Positions 918 to 62,437 of a stretch of 64,000 nucleotides of DNA are shown here, in pieces (position 1 is the first letter of the stretch; every line of letters begins with the position of its first letter). Position numbers and translations under genes: made by a program. This DNA is from Mytilus californianus (taxonomy: Eukaryota). The notes beneath the pieces were generated by a model that saw only the letters and a list, made by a program, of their open reading frames with translations, was not told where the DNA came from and made no database searches. The stretch covers positions 53,568,001 to 53,632,000 of the forward strand of contig NW_026262712.1 of assembly GCF_021869535.1 (NCBI RefSeq), given 5' to 3'.

Positions 918-2883
918 GGCTCGCCCCGCTATACCGATACCCCATTAGTCCAACACCCTATTAGTCCGACACCCCATTGGTCCAACACCCCATTAGTCCG
1001 ACACCCCATTGGTCCGACACCCCAATAGTCTGACACAAGCTGTAATTGAAAATCTACTTCAAACAAAGAAATGGAAAAGACAGCACTTCTCAACTGGCAC
1101 ATGTATGTAAGACATACCATTATCCTATAAATATAAGGCAATCGACAACCTTTGAATTTGATTGATTGAATGGTGTTTTCTTTACGTCCAGTGCCAAATA
1201 GTTTAAGCATGTTCAGGACGAAAACAATTAATAATTAATACAAAAGTGATGACCTGTAATAAGGAATCGACCGGGATGGAGGGCGGAAAATTTGGGCTGC
1301 CACGAGGGTATATTGGATAGGCATAGAAATTTGGCCTGGCAAAAGACTGTCATGGAATAGAAGTTCCTTTATAATATATGTTCTAAATATGGAATATTAT
1401 TTCCACTGGAAAAAATATTACGTTATTTGTGCTTACGGAATAAAGGGTATATATAATATTTGTTCGAAAGGAACAAAATATTATAGCATTGTTTATAACA
1501 AAGTTTCCAGAGGAACTTCTGTTAGGAGGAGCAAATATAGGTAAACAAGTGTGGAAACCATCTACGGACCTATCAAAGAGTTGCTGCAAGGTTTCTTAAA
1601 GTGCAGAGAGCGTGCCACTCTCTTAACACGAGGCATTGGATTTAACGTCCTTATCCAGATCGAACATGGCTACGTATTTATGCATCCAGCATAACCAAAG
1701 GACGCCCCACTTTGGCAAGGGGTTTACTTTATCGATAAAAAAAACCCCCATATTTCTATACCCAGTCACCGTTTATGTGAAGAGAATTTGTAATTCGAAG
1801 AACAGTCTATCGTCGTAAACAAAATGTCCAGACTGCAATATACTCTAACTGAAAAGATTTCAATATAACAAACAAACAAAAACTTATTATATCCAAGCAT
1901 GTTGGTTTCCATTTACACCGAACTTGAATTTAAAAATCGAAACTATCCATAGTAAGATTAAACAGTCGATATATTTGGTTCTTTATTGAATACATTTTGC
2001 ACTTTATTACGGTTGTTAAACTCAACGGATGGCATTTGCCGTTGGAATTGACTTACAGTGAATATTACTACTTCCAAGTTACCGCTCTTCATTCTGGTCG
2101 ACCCCTATTACTGGACTTACCTATTGTATTTATTGATAATTAGTTCTTATCCTAAACATGCATGAAATATTTGCCACTGGATGTAATGACAGATGTATCG
2201 CCCATTGCGTCTATGTTGTTGAAAAACGACATGTTTACCAGTTACGATGCTTTCGCCGGGAAAATTCAAATGTTCTGCCCTAATTTCACTCTTTCTTAAA
2301 TATCGGTGTCCATATATACAAACTAAACTGATGTTCTTTTTCAATGACATTAACCTGTTACATTTCAAATCCCCTTTTCAAAAAATTAATTTAATTAGAC
2401 GGTTTAGTTGAATTACAGCACCGTTATTACTTTTTATCGCTAGAGTTTTACCAGAAAAACGTGACTGTCTTAATTATTCACTCAAGCCATATTCACACAT
2501 TATCGCGTACGAAGCAAAGCTTCATTGGTTCCTTTATTTCTTTCTGCGTCATTTTTAACCTGTATCTCTGAGATACGGTATCCAGAGATATTTAAGCAAT
2601 TCGCCAAGACTTTAATAACAAAGTATTTTGTGCTTTTAGCTAGTGGTGATAAAATTCTGATACTTTTAGTACTATTACATTGACTTAGCTTGCAGCACCT
2701 GTTCCCACGACGGACAGCGTCATTCCTTTATTTTGAACGAATCTTTTATTTGGCTTTCTAATATAAAAATAAATACATTTTTTGGTTAAATATTTCGATG
2801 TCAGACTAATGGAATGTCAAACTATTGGGTGTCGAACCTATAGGGTGTCGGACTAATGGGGTGTCGGAATATCGGGTTGCCCA
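918..2883. mobile_element. Non-autonomous Mutator (MULE)/foldback-like DNA element with 9-bp TSD
   Basis: AAGCACCAG directly flanks both ends (909-917, 2884-2892). The ends are imperfect inverted repeats (CCCG-TAT-CCGA in register), followed by inverted arrays of a ~17-bp unit ACCCCATTAGTCCGAC (930-1036 vs 2800-2880). A 9-bp TSD is typical of MULEs. No transposase seen. Confidence 0.75.
1530..1780 (-). mobile_element. SINE fragment (Deu/Nin-domain-like) nested in the MULE-like element
   Basis: Minus strand reads GGATAAGGACGTTAAATCC...GTGGCACGCTC..., which resembles the central domain of Deu/Nin SINEs as recalled. The tRNA head was not recovered. Confidence 0.3.
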
Positions 2884-2939
2884 AAGCACCAGATATGAGG
2901 CCAGATTTATCCAATTTTATGTTGTTGAAAGTAATGTTA

Positions 2940-4290
2940 AAGTGTATAATTTGCAAGAAAATAAATGTCTCATAGAAAGTGAAAACATTTCATACCATGC
3001 TGGAAGATTAGCAAATCTAAATGGTGGTGCTGTTAGAGCAGGCGAAGCTGATATAATATACCGAAAAAAGCATGAGAATTTGATCAATAACTGAGTTTAT
3101 CATGCTGCATGTTTGATCACATGTTTGGCATAAAGACCAAATTACACCAAGAGTAGTTAAAATTATTGACAACGACCTTATTCGTGACTAAAAACTCTTG
3201 TTATTTGATCAATGTTATTAATGTATACAAGTCTTTCATACCAAATAAAATTATTGAGACCTACTGCAATTTCTATAAACTCAAGGCTAAACTTAAGAAG
3301 CACTACACGGATGCCATAGTGTTCTTTTCTAAACAAGGACATGGTATATCAAACATTTAATTTGAAAACGTCATTTATATTGGCGACGCCTTTAAAGCAT
3401 CAATTAATAACATCAAAGCAAAATCAAAAATTGTTTAAAAGCCGACAGACGGTATTGTTATCAGCTGTCCGACTTCACGTTGTAAGCACGAAGAGGTAGA
3501 TACCACAATGGTTCTCCATGCTTTTCATGCTGATGCTATGTTTAGTGGAAAAGACGGTAAAGATAGAATTTTTATCAAATCAGATGATACTCGCGTTCTT
3601 GTTCCGGCTGTCCATTTCTACTTGATGCTTAAAATTACAAAATTAAGAAGTATGTGTTCATACTGGTCCAATTAACAACTTGAAGGATAACAAACAATTT
3701 ATCTCAGTTTACGCCCCTGTTTCGTCTATAGACCCAGTTGTCGCCGAAATTCTGCCGATCATTCGTGCCTTGAGTGGATTTTTTTTCACTTCAAGATTTA
3801 TGTAATCGGTACAAAGTCGTTATGCAACCTCCTTCGGACGAAAGCAAGCCACTTCAGTAATCTTGTAGCATTAGCACATGGTGCTGTTAATAGTGCTATA
3901 GATGATGCTAGGGTGTTTGTAACTGCGTTATACGAATTAAAATATATCAGTTCAATAAATCGCACAACAAATTAAATTTGCTATGACAGTTGGCTATATA
4001 AAAAGATAAAAGTGTAATAAAACTTCTGCCATGTGAGTTAGTAATTAAGCAACACGTACTACATTTGTACGTTCACCATGCAAAGCAAAGTTTGGGTGTA
4101 GGCAAATGTTGCCAACCCAAAAAATGGCACACCATGCAAGAGGCAGTTTTCTTTGAAGGACAAATGACATCAGACTCTCTACAAGACCTTGTTTGTTCGT
4201 GTAAGGTGGAAAGCATGTGCAGACAGCATGCGTTAACAAGGAGCTGTGACTCATTTCTAAAACAATATTACGAGAAAAAATACTCGTAAG
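2940..4290 (+). mobile_element. Degraded Academ (AcademX-type) transposon coding remnant with XPG/PIN-like nuclease and Cys-rich tail
   Basis: Broken frames give KHEEVDTTMVLHAFHA...IFIKSDDTRVLV (the HEEAD/DTDV motifs of the XPG-like domain), an N-terminal YHAAC-like segment, and a C-terminal FEGQMTSDSLQDLVCSCK Cys-rich segment. Many stops and frameshifts; termini not found. Confidence 0.55.
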
Positions 4291-5216
4291 TCATGAACAT
4301 TTCAGTATAACTTACTTTCAATTTTAGTCGTAAGATTTCTTGATAAAAGTTTCGTTGGTGGCCTGTTGCAAGGCACAATTTTTGTTCCTATCCAATATAT
4401 CCTCATATTCCAGTGGCAGTCCAATTTTACCCCATGTTCTTCACGAAAGTCCTCTGTTACAAAACATACCTATTGTATTAATTGTTAATGTGTTCTCGTC
4501 CTGAACACGCATGAAATATTTGCCTCTGGACGTTAAGCAACCAACAATCAATCAGTCTATGTTGCACGAATTTGTGTTTTTTTTTTCAAAATGTAGGCAA
4601 TTGTAACAATGTCCAGGCCGTACTATACGACATAGCTGATGACACAGATGACATATCATGAACATTATTTATTGGAAATATTTTCTAACTAAATTGGGGT
4701 GTTCCACGTTCATGGTGTATGTGAATTTTAAATTTATATAATTATTCGACGTTTCATTTTGTACATAAAAACAGTCATGTCTTACTTTTTGAATTTGTCT
4801 TACCACCCGCTTGCATTCATTACAGTACCGTCGAATGAAAGTTAATTGTAGTTGTCACTTCATTAACTCATGCTTCTTGTATCATCTGAAAAATTATCGT
4901 GTATTGAGACTAAAAGTGGGAATTGTTTTCAGTGACATGTCGAATCATAGAAAACTGAGACGAAATCTAACCTGCAAATGTTGTTGGGTTTTATCAACAA
5001 TATGTTTCGGATACTCTATTAATACATATTGTTCTCAAATGTATGTATATCTTGTCCATGCTATTTATCGAGGTAGAAGATCAAGGTCATTCTGTTGCAG
5101 TTATGTATTAGGCGTTGAAATATCCACCAAACGTGTTACATTCAAAAAAGTTAAAACAATACGTTATTCTGACGTCATGTGCAAATATGAAACTACAGAA
5201 TAACTTAGATCTGTCT

Positions 5217-13467: not shown

Positions 13468-14976
13468 TTACTCCTGTTTGTGTTTTCTTTTAACTCGGCA
13501 ACAAATCCATTGTAGACACATTACTGATAAAAACCCTATTGTTATAAAAGTGATAATTACATCTATAAGGTAGAACGAATACCAAGGCATATCTATAGAA
13601 GAATGTCGGAAGTGTTCGTTGCCATATTTGGTAACTAAATTAATCAAGTATGCAGCTCGTTCAGGTGGAGTTTGTGGACGGCTATGAAAAATCGCAGAAG
13701 CTTTCATTATGTTAGATTTAAAATGGCCCTTGAAGGCAATATTTCTTATATTTTCTACTAAGTTTTGAACTGTAAAATGGTAAAAATCCATAGTTATTCC
13801 ATAATGTTTGGATGTAATTACGGCAGCATTTGCTGGTTGGTCTACGCCAATGGGGAAAACTATCATTGGGATGCCGTGGTGTAGAGCCTCAAAAACACTA
13901 CTTTTACCTCCATGAGTAATGAATAACTTAGTCTTCGAATGTCCTAATAAGTCATTTTGTGGTATCCATGGCAACATCAAAACATTTTTCATATATTTTA
14001 CCTCTTTTCCTGTGGCAACTACGAAAATTAAGTTCGTCACCATATTAAAAGCTTCGAGCATTTTGCCTAATGTGTTCGTTGGAAGAGTTTTAATAATGCT
14101 TCCGAATGAAACAACTACGATGCCATCTTGGGAACTTTGAACAAAATCATCTAGTTTGTAAGGTAACTGAATCGCAGGTGTTGCAGCAAGTCCACCACAC
14201 ATAATGACATTTGACGGGACTGGATGTGGAAATTCCAATAACATATCATTATCAGCAATATACATTAAGGACTTTTGTTTTATTTTTTCATTAGAAATAC
14301 TTTGTTTTTCCGGTACATATCGTTCTGATAAATTCTCAAAAGAAGGTACTGAAGGACGTAATGATAGCATTAGATATCTAACAGTATTTATAATTCTTTC
14401 AAGGAAAGTCATTTTATCACTAAAACTAGAAAACAGTGTTGGCATGAATGATGGGTTAAATGGCACTCTGTTCACTGAAGGGTCAATAAAGGCCCCTAAA
14501 GAAATAAACGGCAGATTTAATTTGTACGCCATGACAGAGAAGCAGAGAGTAGGTGCATAGTCTACGATGGCATAATCAAAATGCTGGGCGGCTAATTCTT
14601 GCACATGCGCCGTGTCATTTAAATATCCATGACAGAGTGCGTTGGTCCCTTTCAACCACTCGGTCAATGCTGTTATTTTAGCTCCTGACATCATCGTTTC
14701 TACCATCTCTCTTATAATGTCTTCGAAATAAAATTGATCAAGACTCTTTGCTATAATGGTTGAAATATTAAATCCATCATTTATCAAGTCAGTGTTCATC
14801 CTTGATGCCACAGCAAATGTTACTGAATGATTTAACTTATTTAACTCCTTTGAAATTGCAATCATTGGTAACATGTGACTTTTTGACTGTGCCATAATCG
14901 CAATAAACTTTTCTGCGTGTACGTGTAAACTTATTTGGTTACTTAAGGACATCAAAAGTAAAAGTATTTTAATCAT
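13468..14976 (-). CDS. UGT: UDP-glucuronosyl/glycosyltransferase (GT1 family, ER type), 502 aa, single coding exon
   Basis: N-terminal signal peptide; catalytic His region (QSKSHM); UGT signature WIPQNDLLGHSKTKLFITHGGKSSVFEALHHGIPMIVFPIGVDQ; C-terminal TM helix; dilysine-type ER tail KRKHKQE. Confidence 0.97.
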   Translation of the reverse strand: MIKILLLLMSLSNQISLHVHAEKFIAIMAQSKSHMLPMIAISKELNKLNHSVTFAVASRMNTDLINDGFNISTIIAKSLDQFYFEDIIREMVETMMSGAKITALTEWLKGTNALCHGYLNDTAHVQELAAQHFDYAIVDYAPTLCFSVMAYKLNLPFISLGAFIDPSVNRVPFNPSFMPTLFSSFSDKMTFLERIINTVRYLMLSLRPSVPSFENLSERYVPEKQSISNEKIKQKSLMYIADNDMLLEFPHPVPSNVIMCGGLAATPAIQLPYKLDDFVQSSQDGIVVVSFGSIIKTLPTNTLGKMLEAFNMVTNLIFVVATGKEVKYMKNVLMLPWIPQNDLLGHSKTKLFITHGGKSSVFEALHHGIPMIVFPIGVDQPANAAVITSKHYGITMDFYHFTVQNLVENIRNIAFKGHFKSNIMKASAIFHSRPQTPPERAAYLINLVTKYGNEHFRHSSIDMPWYSFYLIDVIITFITIGFLSVMCLQWICCRVKRKHKQE

Positions 14977-18992: not shown

Positions 18993-19408
18993 TTTTGATT
19001 GAGTTAAGCCATTTTAATTGATATTTTATAGTGTGTCTTTCTATGTTGATATGTTACACTATTGTTTCAGATAAGGGTGAAGGTTTGGTACCATTAAAAC
19101 GTTAAAATCCGCTGCAATTGTTTGCAGCTGTTTTAAGTCAGGAATCTGATGTTCAGTAGTTGTCGTATGTTGATGCTGTTCAGAAGTGTTTCTCGTTTCT
19201 CGTTTTTTATATAGATTAGACCGTTGGTTTTCCCGTTTGAATGGTTTTACACTAGTAATTTTTGGGGCCCTTTATAGCTTGTTGTTCGTTGTGAGCCAAG
19301 GCTCCGTGTTGAAGACCGTACTTTGACGTATATTGGTTTACCTTTATAAATTTTGACTTGGATGGAGAGTTGTCTCATTGGCACTCATACCACATCTTCT
19401 TATATCTA
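18993..19408 (-). repeat. Dispersed repeat, same family as 5665-6356
   Basis: Reverse complement of the first ~410 bp of 5665-6356; abuts the Ginger2 left end. Confidence 0.8.
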
Positions 19409-22204
19409 TATACATATGTAGGACTCTAAAGTGCGATGGTAATCCAAAGTGCGATGGTCACGCTAAAGTGCGATGGTCTACGCTAAAGTGCGATGATGTC
19501 AGACGCTAAAGTGGTTGTTTGTTTTTTAAATGCGATCAGATGACACTCTAAAGCGCGATTATATGACACGCTAAAGTGCATTGGTATAACACGCTAAAGT
19601 GCGATGGTGTAACGGGAATTGTGTTCAGGCTATGGTTTTTGTTTTTTGCTGTGTTCGAGTACCCATCTCTTAAACAAACATGACAAACCATATTGTGAAA
19701 AATTGTTTATAAAATAATTCAATTTAAATGTAAAAAGTAGACTTTATTTCACGCAAGTAAATGACATGGGATTACAAACATAGAAGGAGTTTCTAAATCA
19801 AATTTGGACGAATTAAATACTTTGACACTTGATGTATTTTGCCGTTTTCACTCTCTTTTACAGTATACACCTTCCCTTTATTATCGTCAGTTTCTCTGTC
19901 TATAAGAAGTCCTTTTTTTCCAGAACCCTGACAGAAACACGTTTGTTCCCGCTGACAAAGCTGAATTTGGTTTAAAGTCTATAGTGTCATTAACAACGGG
20001 ATCAAAGGTTTGCATTTATGTTACTGTGGATGATTTTTTGGGAAATAACTCCTCCGGATACATACCACTGTCCCATTCTTCACGATTCTGAAAATCGTAA
20101 AAATAAAGTTACAATGAAATATAACATTGAATCAAAACATGAAAATAACAAATGTAACAAATTGAAACAATTTAAAGAAAAATGTTGAAGTGATTTCGAA
20201 TTAAACAAAGTCCTCACGTAAAAGAAAATTTTCACTATGAATGCAAATATTATTTTTTTTTGTTTGGTAATTTCAGAATACTTTTATATAGCATTCAATA
20301 GTACATAACCAACATATACAAGCATACACTTTTTCGGTCACCTTAAATATAATTTATGTTTTGTCAAAATAAATAAGTTGCTTACTTCAGACACATAAAT
20401 ATCGGTTTCCAAATGACGGCGTTTAAAGCCTGTAATACCGGAATCAGTATGTTGTATGAATCTCCTTGCATATAGGTCCTTATAATATGGGCTAACTTCT
20501 GACTGTAAGCAAATACGAAAAGGTTTGAAAATATTCCATAATGTTTAAGCGTGCATAATATTTTGTACATAAATCAGGTCGTTAGTGTTTTCGTTTGAAT
20601 TGTTTTACATTTGTTATTGCGAAGCCTTTTATATCTGTCTATGCGGTATGTGTTTTTCTCATTGTTGAAGGCCGTACGATTACCTATATTTGTAAACTTT
20701 TATGTCATTTGGTCTCTCGTAGAGAGTTGTCTCATTGGCTATCATACTACATCTTATTATTTGTATATTTTAACTTTTTAAAACAAAATTAATAATTGAA
20801 TAAGTATAGTTTAGACTGCATTGTAACATATGCAATATACAAATGGCATTTAAAAGTAAATCCAGTAAATGACATATCTTTAATGATATTATATTTTATT
20901 TAATTTTTATCAAAAATATACATGATGTTGGACAAACGAACAGAGGTAAATTTATTAAAACACTTAGTACGCAAAAATAAATATTAATTTACATTTGTAT
21001 AAAGTGTTTGAATAATAACTCATAATACTTTAACACACGCCCTGCTGTAAAATCGAAATACATTTCTATACATTTCTTTTAAAAATACCATTGAAGTTGA
21101 TATTGTTTAGGCTATATTTTTAAGAGCTACTTTTCTCTAAGTTATTAAATTAACGTACTTGATGTAAAGTTGTATTGCGCTTCATTTGTGAATTTGAAAT
21201 ATCTCGAAGTGGCTAAGACATTTGAAGCTGCTGTTGTGACGGAATCATTTCATTCGATCTGTCATAAGTCTGTTAGGTATTGTTTACCTAAAAAAATAAA
21301 ATTATTTTTTTTTATTAGGGTGTTAATTTTGAAAGTATACTAAGATTCACAAAAGTTAGGTAACCAATTGTACTTTTTTTTTCAAGAGTAAAAAATCAAA
21401 TGTTATTCCAATACCCAAATTGTCCATATCTATTCTAAACGTTCAATAGTGATCAAACATGTAAGCAACACTTACCTCATAGTTTTCTACGCCATTAGCG
21501 GGCTGCATAGAATGCACATTGCTAGTTGTAGTTTCATTTTCCGTTATTACCTAAAATGTAAAGAAAACAATTATAATCATTCATATACAGGTATAATGTA
21601 CACAAATTCAAAGTACTTTATCTGCTATTATCTATCCCCCCCCAAAGAAACAAATCGATTGTAAATATTAAAGCATTGAAAATTTTAAATAATTATATGA
21701 AATGACTTAATTTAAAAACAGTTGGAATAAACAGTTATGTATCATACCGATTCACGTTCATTGATCATGTTGGTAATTCTTGTGTTCCACAACGACTCAA
21801 CAAATTCCTGATAATCATTTTGAGCATCCACACTGGCAATATCTTGAGCTTTTTTATGCATACTATCACAGTTAATCTATAAAAAGGCAATCAAAATGTG
21901 ATATAAAGCAAGTTTTATAACAAGAAGGGTGATTTAACCTATTTTAAAAATAGAAAATTATATTATGCAATGTTTTACTTTGTTGTTTTAAAAACATTTT
22001 ATTGAAATTTGAACAATCAAAATATCTATATCACCAATGCGCTATTACGTAGAACAAGGTTGTAGCACTCACCTCAGTATTTGTATCTGATGCACCAGCT
22101 GTCACAGAATTATTGGTTAAGATATTATGTATAATCACAGACTGCTGGTTTTCATTATTTTTCTATGAGAAATCTTTATAATACACTGGTACTTTGTTAG
22201 CTAA

Positions 22205-22535
22205 CTCTGCAGGTGGACTATCAGTCCCCGAGGGTATCATCAGCTCAGTAGTCAGTACTTCGGTACTGACATGATTTATAACAAACCTTTCTAAAATTGT
22301 CCGTTTATAAATTTTGAAATTATAAAGAAACTAAGGTTTCAACTCCCTCAGGCAAAGTTGGCCTTAGATGAATTTGGTTATTTTTTTAGGTATTTTTGTC
22401 ATATAGCTCTTCTACTGTTTCGGTACTTATACATCCTCGGATTTTAAATGTTTGGCTTTGAGTGTTCCTGATGAAGGTAAATCCAGAAAAGCGATTCGGA
22501 CGCATGAAATTATAAAACGTGTTGTTTTCAGTTTT
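22205..22535 (+). mobile_element. ~330-bp retrozyme-like insertion in transposase intron 3
   Basis: A discrete, more GC-rich block inside the AT-rich intron 22142-22692, ending in a hammerhead-like motif. Boundaries are approximate. Confidence 0.55.
22462..22503 (+). ncRNA. Minimal type I hammerhead-ribozyme-like motif
   Basis: GUGUUC-CUGAUGA-AGGUAAAUCCA-GAAA-AGCGAUU-C-GGACGC. Stem I GUGUUC/GGACGC pairs; core boxes at 22468-22474 and 22486-22489; UUC cleavage triplet at 22495-22497. Stem II is only 2 bp with a flanking A/A mismatch, which is atypical. Confidence 0.55.
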
Positions 22536-25500
22536 TTAACAAGTAATAGATGTATATAAAATATTGTAATTTCATTACATTTTTTTATTACGACAAATGT
22601 GCAATTGACAACTCACATAAATCAAATATTTTGTTTCCCAAAATCCATTATTTTTTTATTTATTTTATTTGAACAAACAACTATTTTCATACCTGTGTAA
22701 CAATCCCTAGTTCTGCATCAGTAATTCCATTAATTTTGACAGATTTCAAGTTTTCCTCAGATGTCAAGTTATCGTTGTCGTCATCATTTTCCTTAACATC
22801 CAAGTGAGCCATCTCCAGAAATTCTTTTTCCTCTTTAGTTAAATTACACTTTGCAACCTTAACATAAATAGTAGAAAAAAATTGTTTAAGTAAAAATGAA
22901 CAAACGGTGATGCGTGTGATCGTCCTGTATATGCATGTTATATTTGTCACTGTACGTTCAACATGCAAACATTAATTTACATTGTGTGTTATTAAAACTT
23001 GAAGAAATTACATGAAATAATAAAACCTTCTACTAATATTCTACATTAACACAATCTTTCAACTTTTTTACTTAAATCTAACTGTTGAATTTGTGTATAC
23101 AATTGTAGAAATAAGAAGATGTGGTATGATTGCCGTTGCATTGTTTATATGATGATCTTTTAAACTGTACTTTTCAGAGTGGGGTTTGATCAATAAACAA
23201 ACATCGTATAGTAACCTTTATTTGTTTTTATATACGTGATTTGTATTATAATGGATAGTTGTCCTATTGGCAATCATACCACGTTTTCTTATTTTCATTT
23301 TAGATAATATAACTTTTAACCATAACTGTGCGTGGAATGAACAACTCATTATTATTTACTTGTTCTAATGCCATTGAAAAGTTTGGCCACTTGAAAAATC
23401 TTTGATGGGGTGTCATTGGTCTAGTAGATTAGTTAACTCTGTTGTTATATTTGTAATAAAATTCTCCAAGTAAACTTGGCCAATCTCGTGTGTCAACAAA
23501 TTGGGCTCTAAAGAATGTAACAACTGTCATATTAAATCTTTCTACACGTCCTGAAATTACCGTGTAAAAATGTTTTATGATACTTTTTAAAATTCTATAT
23601 TTAATGAATATAGCATCTTGAAGATAATTGTTCAGTATAGTAATGTAAAGTTATACCGTTTGTCTACAATGAAGGTAATCAAAAATAAGGAATATTCATA
23701 AAATAAGTTAAAAAAGGGGGAATAAGTCAGGGTTAAAAAAAGCCTAATTAAAGATGTAAACCTGGACCTAATGTAAAGACAATATATATTTCTCTTTCTA
23801 TTTCTATTGTAATGATTACGTGATACTAAATTATTATTTAATATTATAGTACAATTAAGTTTATTAACTAACCTTGTGATTGGGGATGGTACGGGCGACC
23901 ATTATTTTTCTTGTTTTAAACTCATCCATCATTGCACAAAGATCTGCATTGTTAAATTCTTCCCCGTTATCCGTCTGGAGAATCCGAGGTAGACCAAATA
24001 TGTACATAAATCTTAGGAGCAATTCGGAAACTTCTTTTGCCGTCTTTTGCTTTCAATGTCCACCAAAGGCAAGCCGGCTGTAGCAGTCGACAATATTACA
24101 TATGTTATTATATCATTTACATGGAGGCATCTTCTTTAAATCCATTTTCCACCGACTATTGGAATAGGTAGCTGGTATTAGTTTTCTAGTTCTCTGTGTC
24201 TTCGGTAAATCAACAGCTGCAAGGCATATGGAACATGTTACATGTTGTTTAAAAAGTAATCTAGTATTTTCACTAATTACGGGAAAATATGATTTCCTTA
24301 GTGTTTCACTTTTACGGTGATCCACTTTATGATTTTTGTTGGTTTCCACTATCATATCTTCTTTAGATAAGACTCTTCTGTGAGATTCTCCTACCTTTTT
24401 ACTTCTGTGGTACATTGAACAAGTATCGTCATCATACATACAGATGGCTAAATACTTTCTAATATTTGTTTCTCCCATTTGTAAATTTAGTTCCTCCTTT
24501 ATTTTTTTGGCACCCCAGCTGTTTTGATCAAATTTCTTTTTACATATCAAGTTAACCTCTTCCAGCACCGACCAAAAATGTTCCGGATTGGGATCATTTG
24601 TTTCTCTCTTCTTTCTTTTTTTTTTGTCTAGTAAAAACCCTTCATCGAGACACACACTCTCGTTTACTGGCATTTTTTGTTCGTACAAACTGCTTGTAAC
24701 GTCATAATGATACTTAACGTTTCAAACGTCCATACTTTCGCGAACAAACGCACTTTCGCGGAAAAACGCACTTTACCGTATTGAGGCATCGGACTTAAGC
24801 GTGGTTCATTTAATAGCACAGACCATCCCACTAATGCGTATCAAACCATCGCACGTTAGCGTATGCCATCGCACCTAAGCGTGACCATCGCGTTTTAACG
24901 TCCCCATCGCACTTTAGAGTCCTACATATATATGCCTTTGAAAGGGATGCTTTTATCGGTCCCATGTTGCATCATTACGATATTATATATTCGTTACAAA
25001 AATACGTCACTGTTTGTGATGTCCTGTGCATTCGTTAATGGAAGATGATCGTTGTTATTCTGCGGTTTACATGTTGTAACGACTATTATATTATTTATTT
25101 TTGCGTTTCTCTGTGCTGAGTGTTCTTTCGTTCGTTTGTGCTGTATATCTGTCACATAGTGTTGTCATTTTAGCTATATTTTTTAACATTGCCATATAAA
25201 CGAGAGGTTTGGCTAGCCATGAAACCAGGTTCAACCCACCATTTGTTATTAAAATGTCCTGTACCAAGTCAGGGATATGGCAGTTGTTATCAAATAGTTC
25301 GTTTCTATGTATGTTGGCGTTTGTTTTTGTTGCACTTCAGTGTTTCTGTTGTTCCGTTGTTTTCCTCTTATAGTTGATGTGTTTCCCTCGGTTTTAGTTT
25401 GTAACCCGGATATGTTTTCTCTCAATCGATTTATGACTTTTGAACAGCGGTATACTACTGTTGCTTTTATTTATCTTGTACTAAGATATCTAACGTGGAT

Positions 25501-28962: not shown

Positions 28963-30606
28963 CTAGTTTGTCTTGAATACGGATATTGTTTTACCGTCAT
29001 TATTTGCAATGTAAACCTTAGATAGTTTCTTACTGTAACAGAATGCAAGAGGTTTGAACAAATTGTCTTTCAAAAAGATGTCTTCAAGGGTTCCAGAAGA
29101 TGTGAGTTTATGAATGTTTTGTGAATCGCGTCCAAGGACGTATATGTTGTCGGCATCATCTATTTGAATATCCCGTGATTGACGAAGATTGGGAGAAGTA
29201 TAAGTAAAAACAGTATTTCCATCTGACGTTATGCAGTAAATTTCATGATTGAATGAATAACAAATGTTTCCATTTGAGCAAACGGATATGAAGCCAGGAT
29301 AATGCTCAACTGTTTGCGCATTTATTGTTCTTTCGAAATTTCCGCATAAGTCTAGGACATGTATGTTTCCTTTAGCTCCTACAAATATCTTATCTTTTGT
29401 TGCAGTAACACCATCGGTTCCTTTTTGTTTCAATTCTATTTGTTTTAATATTTTTCGTCCATCTATATCGACGAACAGTATGTACGAATTATATGCACAA
29501 GACACAACAGCAGTGGTTGTTTGTTGTATTGCTGATATATCCCATGGTGCATATGGATAGCCGATAGATAATAAGAAGGTGTCGTTTTCATCACAAAAAT
29601 AAACTTTTTTCGTATTTACATCACAGAAAATCAATGTGTTATTGTCTGATATCGTGATGCCTGTTACTCCTTCCAATTTTTCTCCTTGCATGTCAATGTC
29701 GTAGAGATAGGTGATGGAGGTAACCTGACGCTTCAGAACGACTGGAACCTGTGACTGCCGCTGCGTGTATGGGTCAATTGAAACGGAACAAGGCGTGTAT
29801 TTCCATTCTATTGAACCGAGATCCGTTAAATTTTCTTTCGGGACTCTTTCGACGAACCAAAGACTGGTGTCTACAAACGATTCGGTTAGCTCTTTAACTT
29901 GATTTTCAATGATATCTAAGATTGGTTTCGATGAATAAATTGAAATAAACGCTTGTTTTTCAGAACCATGATCTCTTATAAATTCAAACACTTCTTTTTG
30001 TGTTTTTGTAGATGTTACCAAGTCACCTATATCTTTCTCCTGTCGTTTAATACCAGTGACATCTTTGTTTTTTAGTTCGGATAGTTGTTTAAGAAGTGAC
30101 TCTTCTAAAGATTCCAAACGCTTGATAATATTTTCTTTTGTTTTCGCTATTTGTTTTCGAATTTGTGTTTCTTCTTGTTCTATTCGACTACAATTTTCCT
30201 TTCGATTGGTGTTCAGTCTCTCTAATGCTTCTAAAATAAAGCACAACTGTTCTTTAAAATCCATGAACGTCTCTGATTGTTTAGAACTCTTTGATGCAAT
30301 ATCAATTGATGTAACGTTCTTGCATACTCTGTGATTTTTTGGCAAACATTCCTTACAACATACAATATCATGATCAACACAAAAATAGTCTAAAGGCAAA
30401 TGTTGATGCATCGAACAATTATTGGATAGATGAATGTTCTTCGGTAGTTTACCTATCTCAACCAAATGGTGACTTCGTGACATTTTTTGGACTTTATGAG
30501 CTTCTGTACATTCGGAACACAATGCCTCTTCACATTCGGTACACCATTGGAAGGCTGTTTGGGTCATACCACGTGCAGTGCATGGTTCACAATATTTTGC
30601 TATCAT
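28963..30606 (-). CDS. RING-less TRIM-like protein A: B-box1, B-box2, coiled coil, NHL-type beta-propeller (547 aa)
   Basis: B-box1 CEPC...CTECEEALCSECTEAH...HH; B-box2 CSMH...FCVDHDIVCCKEC...H; heptad-rich middle; propeller repeats (GITISDNNTLIFCD, PWDISA, DIQIDDADNIYV). An AG acceptor sits 4 nt before the ATG. Confidence 0.95.
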   Translation of the reverse strand: MIAKYCEPCTARGMTQTAFQWCTECEEALCSECTEAHKVQKMSRSHHLVEIGKLPKNIHLSNNCSMHQHLPLDYFCVDHDIVCCKECLPKNHRVCKNVTSIDIASKSSKQSETFMDFKEQLCFILEALERLNTNRKENCSRIEQEETQIRKQIAKTKENIIKRLESLEESLLKQLSELKNKDVTGIKRQEKDIGDLVTSTKTQKEVFEFIRDHGSEKQAFISIYSSKPILDIIENQVKELTESFVDTSLWFVERVPKENLTDLGSIEWKYTPCSVSIDPYTQRQSQVPVVLKRQVTSITYLYDIDMQGEKLEGVTGITISDNNTLIFCDVNTKKVYFCDENDTFLLSIGYPYAPWDISAIQQTTTAVVSCAYNSYILFVDIDGRKILKQIELKQKGTDGVTATKDKIFVGAKGNIHVLDLCGNFERTINAQTVEHYPGFISVCSNGNICYSFNHEIYCITSDGNTVFTYTSPNLRQSRDIQIDDADNIYVLGRDSQNIHKLTSSGTLEDIFLKDNLFKPLAFCYSKKLSKVYIANNDGKTISVFKTN

Positions 30607-61198: not shown

Positions 61199-62437
61199 TT
61201 ACATTATCAATCGTTCTTCGAATTCGAAGTCCTTGCTTAACACAAGTTCAAGATTTCTAGATGCTCGTTTCAGTTTGTTCTTCTGGTCTCGTCTTTGGCG
61301 ACGGATTTGCCATGATTTAAGGTGTACGCTGTTAATTCGACACACTTCCATCGATGAAACTGATTTGTCTTTAAATGTTTCTTCAATTCCTGAAAACCGA
61401 ACTTCTCTTTCAACGAAAGAGCCAACCCTGGTCAAGTCTCCTTCACTTTTACTTCCCGCTAAAATCTTAAAGTCGCACGAGCTGTAACACGAGTCGCAGT
61501 CAATTCCACGCCTTCGTTTCACATTTCTATGTCGTCTGCGCATTATCTGAAAGGAATTTTCTTGGATGCTCGAAGTTCTGAAGAGATTGTTCATTGAAGG
61601 AGAGCCACATTCAAAAGATTCATCACTGAACACCTCACATTTATCGTCACTGTGACGTAGACTGTCTAAAATGTCATCACATGATCTGCTTTGAAATTTG
61701 GAATGCGCCTGTATTGGATGAACCTCGCTGTCTTCCGAAAGGAGAGAGATTCCGGAATCTCTATATACAGACTTCCTAAAGTTATTTTCCTTATGCCCAC
61801 TTCCACACACAAGTGAAATCCATGATTTTCTATTTTCCTCTTTGTTAATTTGTTTTGGTGATGATTTATCGGGTTTCATTGAAAGGACATGCTGGTTTTC
61901 GAAATCCAAATTTTTTTGACTCCCGCACATTAAAGACATCCATGACAGTCTTTTATTTTGTGAAGAAATCGGCGATTCGGTTAGGTTTTCAATGTCATCT
62001 AACTCACTTTGACTCGGTGTTGTTGGTTTTGTTTTGATGTCTTCTTCTTCTTGTTCTTGTTGAAGTTGCTTTGTAATTTCTACATCACCTTCCTGTTTAT
62101 TTGACAATTTCTCTGGCCTTGGGGCTTCTTCATTTGGATCATCAAAGTCAAAATTATTCCTTCCACACATAAATGACATCCAAGATTTTCGATTTTCAGA
62201 TTTCCGTGATTTTTCGGTTTTGCGAGATTGTTTAGGAATTTCCGGAAGATTGGAAGGAATTTCGTACTGAAAATCAACATCAAAAGAATGGTAAGAAGAA
62301 TCTAGACCCTCGATGTTTCTGATTATATCTGTCACATCCAAGATACTACGTGGTCGGCTCTTTTTCTGTGTTTTCCTTTTTGACTTTCTCCATTTCGAAA
62401 CTTTTTGAAATATTGCTAGTGATTCTCCGATTGGCAT
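61199..62437 (-). CDS. Uncharacterised 412-aa Ser/Lys/Glu-rich, probably disordered protein
   Basis: A 1239-nt ORF in AT-rich DNA. Acceptor TTTGTCTTCAG ends 1 nt before the ATG, and the upstream donor exon has an in-frame stop, so this ATG is the start. No domain recognised. Confidence 0.8.
   Translation of the reverse strand: MPIGESLAIFQKVSKWRKSKRKTQKKSRPRSILDVTDIIRNIEGLDSSYHSFDVDFQYEIPSNLPEIPKQSRKTEKSRKSENRKSWMSFMCGRNNFDFDDPNEEAPRPEKLSNKQEGDVEITKQLQQEQEEEDIKTKPTTPSQSELDDIENLTESPISSQNKRLSWMSLMCGSQKNLDFENQHVLSMKPDKSSPKQINKEENRKSWISLVCGSGHKENNFRKSVYRDSGISLLSEDSEVHPIQAHSKFQSRSCDDILDSLRHSDDKCEVFSDESFECGSPSMNNLFRTSSIQENSFQIMRRRHRNVKRRRGIDCDSCYSSCDFKILAGSKSEGDLTRVGSFVEREVRFSGIEETFKDKSVSSMEVCRINSVHLKSWQIRRQRRDQKNKLKRASRNLELVLSKDFEFEERLIM

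Follow-up and report, generated by a model that had tools for sequence, protein, structure and literature searches.

Ginger-type elements provide the leading model for a DNA transposon source of the integrase of long terminal repeat (LTR) retrotransposons. The Ginger2/TDD group is defined by TGTNR ends, a 4-bp target-site duplication (TSD; 5 bp in TDD-4/5), an RTATAY target and a protein with an H2C2 finger and a DDE core, without the YPYY and GPY/F motifs (PMC2836005). Elements of the Ginger1 group have 0−4 introns and the host genes Gin-1 and Gin-2 have 6−8, while no counts are listed for Ginger2 (PMC2836005). A survey of bivalves counts 98 Ginger elements (PMC10294476). The element described here lies at positions 19417−24926 (~5.5 kb) of a 64,000-nucleotide stretch of the Mytilus californianus genome (assembly GCF_021869535.1, contig NW_026262712.1, forward-strand positions 53,568,001−53,632,000; referred to as the window). 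Most probably, it represents one dead copy among the many of a DNA transposon that carries a single nine-exon gene, spliced in close relatives, for a DD35E integrase which likely excises and re-inserts the element.

With Ginger2/TDD elements, the mussel element shares the TGTNR ends, the 4-bp TSD, the RTATAY-type target, the combination of H2C2 and DDE and the occurrence of non-autonomous derivatives, and the size range of 2.8−6.7 kb (6.1−6.7 kb for three listed elements) covers that of the mussel elements (PMC2836005). The YPYY and GPY/F motifs are not visible by eye in our alignment A1, as in Ginger2; a barrel of the kind that carries GPY/F in other integrases is predicted. The length of the terminal inverted repeats (TIRs) is borderline, i.e., they are ~50−180 bp in Ginger2 (45−297 bp as listed) while those of the mussel elements are perfect over 20−23 bp and imperfect over 70−105 bp (PMC2836005). 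The mussel element also differs from Ginger2 in its family-specific subterminal arrays, a predicted N-terminal helix-turn-helix (HTH), eight introns and a catalytic core that forms its own clade (referred to as the clade). Ginger1 and Gin-1/Gin-2 likewise combine an integrase-type transposase with spliceosomal introns, and Ginger1 has TGT ends and a 4-bp TSD as found here, but its CCGG/CCGT targets, YPYY, GPY/F and OTU/Ulp1 (PMC2836005) are not seen in the mussel element, and Pfam finds none of these domains in nine clade proteins.

Transposases of the insertion sequence (IS) families IS481 and IS3, and of IS481EU, share with the clade TG…CA ends and an rve core, which is preceded by an HTH (predicted in the clade) whose helix reads HP.WG..KI. 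The HHCC finger is described as absent from IS481, IS3, IS481EU, IS3EU/GingerRoot and Polinton, such that HTH and HHCC are treated as features of different groups (PMC10045372), although the clade appears to hold both in one protein; in addition, it differs from IS481/IS3 in having a C-terminal barrel and introns. IS3EU/GingerRoot elements have TA…TA ends, a 6-bp TSD and no HHCC, whereas the mussel element has TGT…ACA ends, a 4-bp TSD and the HHCC. Polintons (also named Mavericks) are large, encode a DNA polymerase and have AG…CT ends with a 6-bp TSD, whereas the mussel elements are 4.4−6.7 kb with one gene. Retroviral and Ty3/Gypsy integrases, e.g., that of foamy virus, comprise an extension domain, HHCC, DD35E core and SH3-type domain in the same order as here, but the mussel gene stands alone between TIRs without a reverse transcriptase (RT), and its product has an extra helix, which would make the HTH, and a long acidic linker. 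In CACTA transposons, which use an unrelated enzyme family, exon numbers are reported to vary between families from one to six, mostly by intron loss (PMC4158355).

The ends of the window copy and the adjacent repeats are the following.

19413−19416, no strand: left TSD (CATA), one mismatch relative to the right copy
19417−19439, plus strand: TIR at the element 3' end, 23 bp, perfect
19422−19611, plus strand: subterminal array, seven units of ~22 bp that share the core GTGCGATGG and are spaced by 18−23 bp (one gap of 65)
24734−24920, minus strand: subterminal array at the 5' end, 5 GTGCGATGG units (24786−24920) and two 18-bp repeats
24904−24926, minus strand: TIR at the element 5' end, 23 bp, perfect
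24927−24930, no strand: right TSD (TATA)

The TIRs, which start with TGTAG, are thus exactly those claimed in a first-pass annotation of the window. Beyond the perfect 23 bp, the match continues imperfectly over ~70−105 bp (~80%) through the subterminal repeats, where units with the GTGCGATGG core are 19−23 bp. In the genome, the exact 23-mer end occurs 520 times (253 forward, 267 reverse) while the reversed control does not occur at all, which indicates a family rather than a chance match. Copies were sampled from 17 + 15 stretches that contain the best matches at the protein and DNA level and from 20 further stretches, mostly at close end pairs among the first 100 end matches listed. Among 43 pairs in which both ends were found, 35 are flanked by a perfect 4-bp TSD, six by one with a single mismatch and two by unmatched sequence; the CCGG/CCGT target was found at none (0/43). 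The AT-rich 4-bp TSD proposed earlier is correct in length, but in the window copy itself (CATA and TATA) only three of the four bases are equal. The perfect pairs define a target consensus A-TATA-T, centred in TATATATA, and ten of them have a duplication other than TATA (AATA in five, TATT in two, and TATG, GATA and TACA). At all ten, 4 bp fits while duplications of 2, 3, 5 or 6 bp fail. From the window, a TA-dinucleotide (Tc1-like) boundary was plausible; it is excluded by the ten non-TATA insertions, as is a TAT…ATA boundary with a 6-bp duplication (IS3EU-like), which fixes the ends as TGT…ACA with a 4-bp TSD. Many end pairs are only 0.8−1.9 kb apart, and those that can be aligned to the full element keep the end portions only, i.e., the short ~1-kb copies are internally deleted, non-autonomous elements.

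The genome harbors four families (A−D) of such elements, and alignment of the window with eight other copies of family A yielded the nine exons listed below.

23873−24673, minus strand: exon 1, predicted HTH, beta-sheet extension, HHCC finger and first two catalytic D; two stops, one frameshift
Within exon 1, minus strand: HTH at ~24595−24443, HHCC at 24331−24224, catalytic D at 24142 and 23971
23551−23872, minus strand: intron 1 (phase 1), which directly precedes the catalytic E; shared by families A and D, missing from B and C
23360−23550, minus strand: exon 2, with the codon of the catalytic E at 23542 and the last part of the core; one stop
22693−22857, minus strand: exon 3, conserved LTxEE..FL..AHLDV helix, then acidic linker
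22206−22540, no strand: 335-bp insertion in intron 3, not in sister copy L031, partly matching a repeat that flanks other loci
22073−22162, minus strand: exon 4, linker
21748−21876, minus strand: exon 5, linker
21476−21550, minus strand: exon 6, linker
21159−21287, minus strand: exon 7, linker; two stops
20386−20502, minus strand: exon 8, conserved SPYY helix
19793−20087, minus strand: exon 9, which encodes the conserved motif YPxELF and a barrel of predicted SH3/Tudor type; one stop, one frameshift

All 16 splice sites of the window copy are GT/AG on the minus strand, with intron 1 in phase 1 and introns 2−8 in phase 0, in agreement with the at least nine exons and the phase 0 of the seven later introns recognized in the first-pass annotation. 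Both the HHCC finger and the D-x35-E spacing recognized there also hold, the latter when the base missing at the first frameshift is included; the finger reads H-x3-H-x27-C-x2-C in the window and has x31 in intact copies. The window copy is dead; the same six stops (24115, 24055, 23431, 21275, 21215 and 20018) and two frameshifts (~23905 and ~19919) were counted as before, and exon 1 is the sole frame of at least 150 amino acids (aa) inside the element. No match to a reverse transcriptase family was found. A very common host repeat has pieces at window positions 19350−19411, 20707−20768, 23239−23300 and 23106−23134, i.e., directly to the left of the element and in introns 7 and 2; the piece in intron 7 is present in family A copies as well.

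The eight further copies are 94−99% identical to each other over the gene and 84−85% identical to the window copy. Two of them, L031 and L032, have all 16 splice sites canonical and an open spliced frame without a stop or frameshift, such that the splice sites and frames derived from the window are kept elsewhere. An open frame of ~656 aa had been anticipated; the frame exists, but its length is 669 aa in the intact copies, and the window exons total 663 codons plus the stop. The other six family A copies have stops or frameshifts, and two of these have damaged splice sites. Between the window and L031, identity is 88.5% in exons and 82.5% in introns, and the ratio of nonsynonymous to synonymous substitution rates (dN/dS) is 0.25 in exons 1−2, 0.57 in the linker exons 3−7, and 0.19 and 0.14 in exons 8 and 9, respectively. 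Exons 8−9 are under purifying selection.

Splicing is also seen in sequencing data, for which eight of 24 listed runs were compared with L031. Two contigs, of 2012 nt in the RNA run X7 and of 1710 nt in X4, each skip all eight introns at GT..AG, X3 and X11 contain seven and six of the eight joints, also at GT..AG, and raw reads of X21 cover two (with 2 and 4 reads), while X16 covers introns of L031 and contains none of the eight joints. The junctions expected from the first-pass annotation are thus found together in single contigs of X7 and X4. In the annotated Mytilus edulis protein P0057, the exon boundaries of the tail equal those of family A. The nine exons are real and are spliced in close relatives of the window copy. 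Separately, contigs of X11 and X16 join L031:1131−1296 to 5042−5224 and skip ~3.9 kb at points that are not GT/AG; joints that skip the interior of L031 are as expected for ~1-kb internally deleted copies, and two are found in an RNA run.

The encoded protein is predicted to comprise four modules, i.e., an N-terminal HTH, a beta-sheet with the HHCC finger, the catalytic core and, after an acidic linker of ~200 aa, an SH3/Tudor barrel. This architecture is based on a structure model of the relative P0008 (52-row alignment, mean predicted local distance difference test (pLDDT) score 75.5), for which the top Foldseek matches are to the foamy-virus integrase over ~445 columns. Pfam rve is matched in clade protein(s) with E 3e-18, while the single exons of the window give only a weak rve match in one of five. 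A profile of the HHCC region matches other HHCC regions at 97%, and Pfam Integrase_H2C2 has no match in the clade proteins. The linker measures ~200 aa in family A, where it contains most of the introns, as opposed to ~60 aa in the members of sponge type; in the P0008 model it has low confidence. In family D (L042 and L058 in this genome), the proteins P0045 and P0032 annotated in other Mytilus species hold a 20-aa linker unit in many tandem copies, of which L042 has about one, such that the linker can grow by duplication of repeats or exons.

The first-pass annotation had assigned ~300 aa to a non-integrase tail, which does not agree with the selection on exons 8−9 or with the last ~70 aa, which are predicted to fold as an SH3/Tudor barrel like those of integrase C-terminal domains. 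In the P0008 model, the barrel consists of five strands (pLDDT 79−94), and residues 444−515 align with the integrase C-terminal domains of Rous sarcoma virus (RSV), maedi-visna virus (MVV) and simian T-lymphotropic virus (STLV) as well as with Tudor domains (VIA: Z 8.6, root-mean-square deviation (rmsd) 1.9, 57 aligned). As leads only, ESM Atlas points to DUF5641 and to the C-terminal families of the murine leukemia virus (MLV) and human immunodeficiency virus (HIV) integrases (0.78−0.82).

At the other end of the protein, the domain upstream of the finger and beta-sheet is modelled as three helices, and the top row of the VIA comparison is the DNA-binding domain of the Tc3 transposase (Z 5.4, rmsd 2.8, 49 aligned), most rows being HTH proteins. 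An HTH fold of this domain is likely. At E <0.05, a profile built from it matched 52 of the 65 IS481-type proteins from bacteria, in each case at the HP.WG.RKI helix that precedes the core, and none of 52 distant integrase-like proteins; of 585 shuffles, a single one attained 7 bits. When applied to the 131 new proteins retrieved by a search of 1.84 billion, the profile matched clade members and N-terminal clade fragments only, and none of 91 further distant integrase-like proteins apart from clade fragments (143 non-clade proteins in total). Compared profile to profile, the HTH matches IS481 N-termini with a probability of 94.5% (E 8e-8, 45 columns) while three controls gave 0.3−1.1%. For all five clade proteins tested, the best NCBIfam model is IS481 (E 1e-22 to 1e-39), at 80−137 bits relative to a cut-off of 224. 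From these profile matches, homology of the N-terminal HTH to that of the IS elements seems somewhat more probable than its absence.

Families B, C and D have 46−67% identity in exon 1, and element sizes across the families are 4.4−6.7 kb with one gene each and a perfect TIR part of 20−23 bp. All four have TGT ends (TGTAG in A, B and D, TGTAA in C) and TATA targets, while their subterminal repeats fall into three motif types. Family D has the end and the repeat core of family A. In family B, the first ten bases of the end are as in A but the repeat is CAAATCTATGG; in family C (L055, L056 and L061), the ends start with TGTAACACTC, the repeat is CCCAAACGTGTCC and the flanks are TATA. The loci of family B (L048−L054, L059, L060 and L062) are ~4.6 kb and without intron 1, several of them with frameshifts in the last exon; eight copies are 99.2−99.7% identical and the 20-mer end has 459 exact occurrences. 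The lineage has been spreading recently in mussels.

Three introns occupy matching positions in all four families, i.e., intron 2, the one that precedes the SPYY exon and the last one (in B, the last is taken from the exon layout). Gene calls with a relation to A and D, one of them an oyster protein, end or diverge at a common glycine, which suggests a single gain of intron 1 in that branch. Named relatives are found in Mercenaria, Magallana and the sponge Sycon, with the closest named proteins from Mytilus. Over the full length, 97% identity was found between a Sycon protein and a 492-aa protein called as a single frame on a contig of 287 kb, which suggests that the sponge-type gene is intronless. 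Thus, the clade has relatives in oyster, clam and sponge, of which the sponge members appear to lack introns, and within it introns likely went from none in these members to eight. In scans of JGI metagenomes, nothing was found with P0027; alignment A1 retrieved 80 loci, mostly bacterial of IS481 type, none of them in the clade. Another integrase-like protein (P0094, L063 and L064) was observed with an N-terminal OTU before H2C2 and rve, i.e., in the reverse of the Ginger1 order.

The position of the clade was analyzed using trees of the core (152 columns), i.e., a FastTree of 144 rows, a quick tree of 74 and careful trees of 37, 33 and 39 rows. Rows were thinned by hand, with near-copies and short fragments omitted; plasmid locus L232 has no usable frame, and L227 is long and probably misaligned. 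The terms “KRBA2-like Ginger2” and “Polinton-like” are our own labels, based on one source name, likeness to motifs in a supplement and Pfam chromodomain matches. In four of the five trees the core forms one group (1.0; 100; 90/93; 100/99, the last in the 33-row tree), while in the 39-row tree it does not (37% of bootstrap trees) and the base is unresolved; support for the clade is good when bacteria are left out. The clade core does not group with the KRBA2-like Ginger2 cores in any of the five trees, and in the 33-row tree these are a separate clade at 100/97. It is also apart from the Polinton-like cores and from the Gypsy cores that bear RT and RNase H, the latter being separate in every tree. 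In approximately unbiased (AU) tests, in which named Repbase proteins were not among the rows, neither a Gypsy sister (p 0.32) nor a KRBA2-like Ginger2 sister (p 0.07) was rejected. With IS481 outgroups, which were found by the motifs of the clade itself, the clade is next to the bacteria at 89/88, but with motif-independent IS outgroups the base is unresolved and a basal position is not rejected (p 0.42). The largest tree has the clade among other eukaryotic cores. The clade motif DLKK(M/L)P…CNIVDC.SRFA was seen, by eye, in none of 24 Ginger2 cores in the supplement of PMC10045372, which represent 24 of 30 Repbase entries.

The initial assignment as Ginger2/TDD-like is therefore supported by the ends, TSD and target, but the core is found in its own clade and not with the KRBA2-like Ginger2 cores, i.e., the element is Ginger2-like in its ends and target, and the AU tests are compatible with a Ginger2 as well as with a Gypsy sister. 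It is likely an undescribed branch of the Ginger transposons. No description of the mussel family was found in the open literature, where Repbase, Dfam, subscription papers and the sequences in the supplement of PMC10294476 lie outside the comparison; the family may be catalogued in Repbase or Dfam. The earlier suggestion of an undescribed family is consistent with this absence from the literature. Nine exons exceed the published counts for Ginger transposons, but given that Ginger1 has up to 4 introns and Gin-1/Gin-2 have 6−8 (PMC2836005), this number, while uncommon, is not what distinguishes the element most, and introns in DNA transposases are ordinary in kind. Of greater interest are the predicted combination of HTH and HHCC, the repeats specific to each family and the copies that are young, intact and spliced.

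In the mechanism that we favor, the HTH would bind the 19−23-bp subterminal repeats and thereby set the specificity of each family. In line with this pairing, the repeat core and the GET(S)(I/V)RKY sequence of the third helix are each common to families A and D, and each is different in B and C. An intasome-like complex of finger, core and barrel would assemble on both ends, where the DD35E site would nick after the terminal CA. The second strand would be cut in a further step that frees the element, with cut-and-paste as the first choice and an IS3/IS481-type copy-out as the main rival. The two 3'-OH ends would then attack ATATAT-type DNA four bases apart, and host repair would yield the 4-bp duplication; the short copies would be moved in trans. 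Introns are kept because the element moves as DNA.

A number of observations weigh against parts of this description. In one genome, a search with the right flank found no empty paralogous site; only a common repeat that starts 47 bp away matched. The transcripts are ~97−98% identical to L031 and derive from relatives rather than from the window copy; X3, X7 and X11 belong to one study, X4 is RNA by guess only, and X1 and X22 gave no joints with L031. For the N-terminal domain, Pfam, Foldseek and ESM Atlas give no significant family. The fold score is middling (Z 5.4, best Foldseek E 0.11), Pfam HTH models remain below threshold (E 0.13−0.2 in three of nine clade proteins), ESM Atlas leads to clusters associated with integrase H2C2 and not to the HTH of IS elements (0.79−0.83, leads only), and six IS proteins picked without the shared core motif match the HTH profile at E 0.28 or worse. 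The pairing of repeat and helix is based on three motif types among related families, and the intronless state in sponges on single gene calls on contigs of 287−581 kb rather than on DNA.

How the element leaves its donor site is the point at which the closest rival diverges. The same element could move by IS3/IS481-type copy-out-paste-in, where one end is transferred to the other, replication releases a circle, the circle integrates and the donor stays in place. IS3-family elements move in this way. The IS481 model that fits the five tested clade proteins best, although in each case below its cut-off, and the match of the HTH profile to IS481 N-termini argue for this possibility, as does the statement that the excision mechanism of Ginger1 is unknown (PMC2836005). 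Only two end-to-end junctions were found in the genome, of which one is cross-family and best read as neighbouring insertions into a TA run and the other is degenerate; this scarcity is weak evidence against copy-out because circles would be transient. We consider copy-out possible but clearly less probable than not. At these junctions (L224:1500−1523 and L225:1500−1527) the element ends abut with 2 or 6 TA bases between them, and L225 consists of short elements of families B and D.

A comparable, minor probability is assigned to an ordinary Ginger2/TDD family, probably present in Repbase, in which the HTH likeness would reflect convergence on a short P.WG..KI helix within the usual N-terminal extension. 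The TGTNR ends, 4-bp TSD, RTATAY target and HHCC with DDE but without YPYY or GPY/F all agree with the group as defined, and three listed elements of 6.1−6.7 kb are of similar length (PMC2836005); the AU value of 0.07 does not reject a grouping with KRBA2-like Ginger2, and six of the 30 Repbase Ginger2 entries are outside the alignment compared. The KRBA2/SCAND3-like Ginger2 proteins (PMC3575427) share the HPQSQG…E motif and the HHCC region (profile 86%) with the clade, but they have no match to the HTH profile (1.1%). Neither the trees, in which the core is never found with KRBA2-like Ginger2 cores, nor the 24 Ginger2 cores (by eye, PMC10045372), none of which has the clade motif, nor the HTH profile, with 0/52 and 0/91 distant integrase-like proteins matched when clade fragments are set aside, fit this explanation. 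Separate KRBA2-like Ginger2 loci are present in the genome (L173−L197); in L175, the part between finger and C-terminus lies in a single open frame (455 aa), and a Znf_SCAND3 domain and a cysteine-rich tail are present. It is far less probable, to the point of being very improbable, that the gene is a domesticated host integrase (KRBA2/SCAND3- or Gin-like) or a remnant of an LTR retrotransposon or Polinton, flanked by incidental inverted repeats. Such an origin could be suggested by the names “SCAN domain-containing protein 3-like” and “KRAB-A domain-containing protein 2-like” given by NCBI to some relatives, by the multi-exon host integrase genes Gin-1/Gin-2 (PMC2836005) and by the AU value of 0.32 for a grouping with Gypsy cores. 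However, the exact ends number in the hundreds, dispersed copies have different flanks with their own TSDs, most copies are broken, those of family B are 99.2−99.7% identical, there is no other long frame in the element and the Gypsy cores with RT and RNase H are separate in every tree.

A bolder view, which we regard as rather unlikely, is that the clade constitutes a separate lineage at the superfamily level, extending from sponge to bivalves, which has kept an end-binding HTH of the IS481/IS3 type along with the HHCC finger and SH3 domain of retroviral integrases. In that case, no other living lineage would link bacterial IS transposases and LTR/retroviral integrases as closely, and the N-terminal extension domain of integrases would be a reduced form of the HTH. 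If so, families that are spliced and were active recently would allow direct tests of how Ginger-type elements are excised. Irrespective of this view, the lineage provides young copies (family B), intact genes and an exon structure verified in RNA. It also displays intron change within one transposase clade, from apparently none in sponge through three shared positions in the four mussel families and an intron at the catalytic E in two of these to eight in family A. Mobile elements also account for several mussel proteins that carry SCAND3- or KRBA2-like annotations.

Elsewhere in the window, all on the minus strand, positions 28966−30624 and 35978−37657 contain paralogous frames of 553 and 560 aa with N-terminal B-box zinc fingers, i.e., TRIM-like proteins. 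The frames of 420 and 229 aa at 61202−62461 and 9429−10115 match no Pfam family at E 0.001, and that of 504 aa at 13471−14982 has a UDP-glycosyltransferase domain (Pfam UDPGT, E 6e-74).

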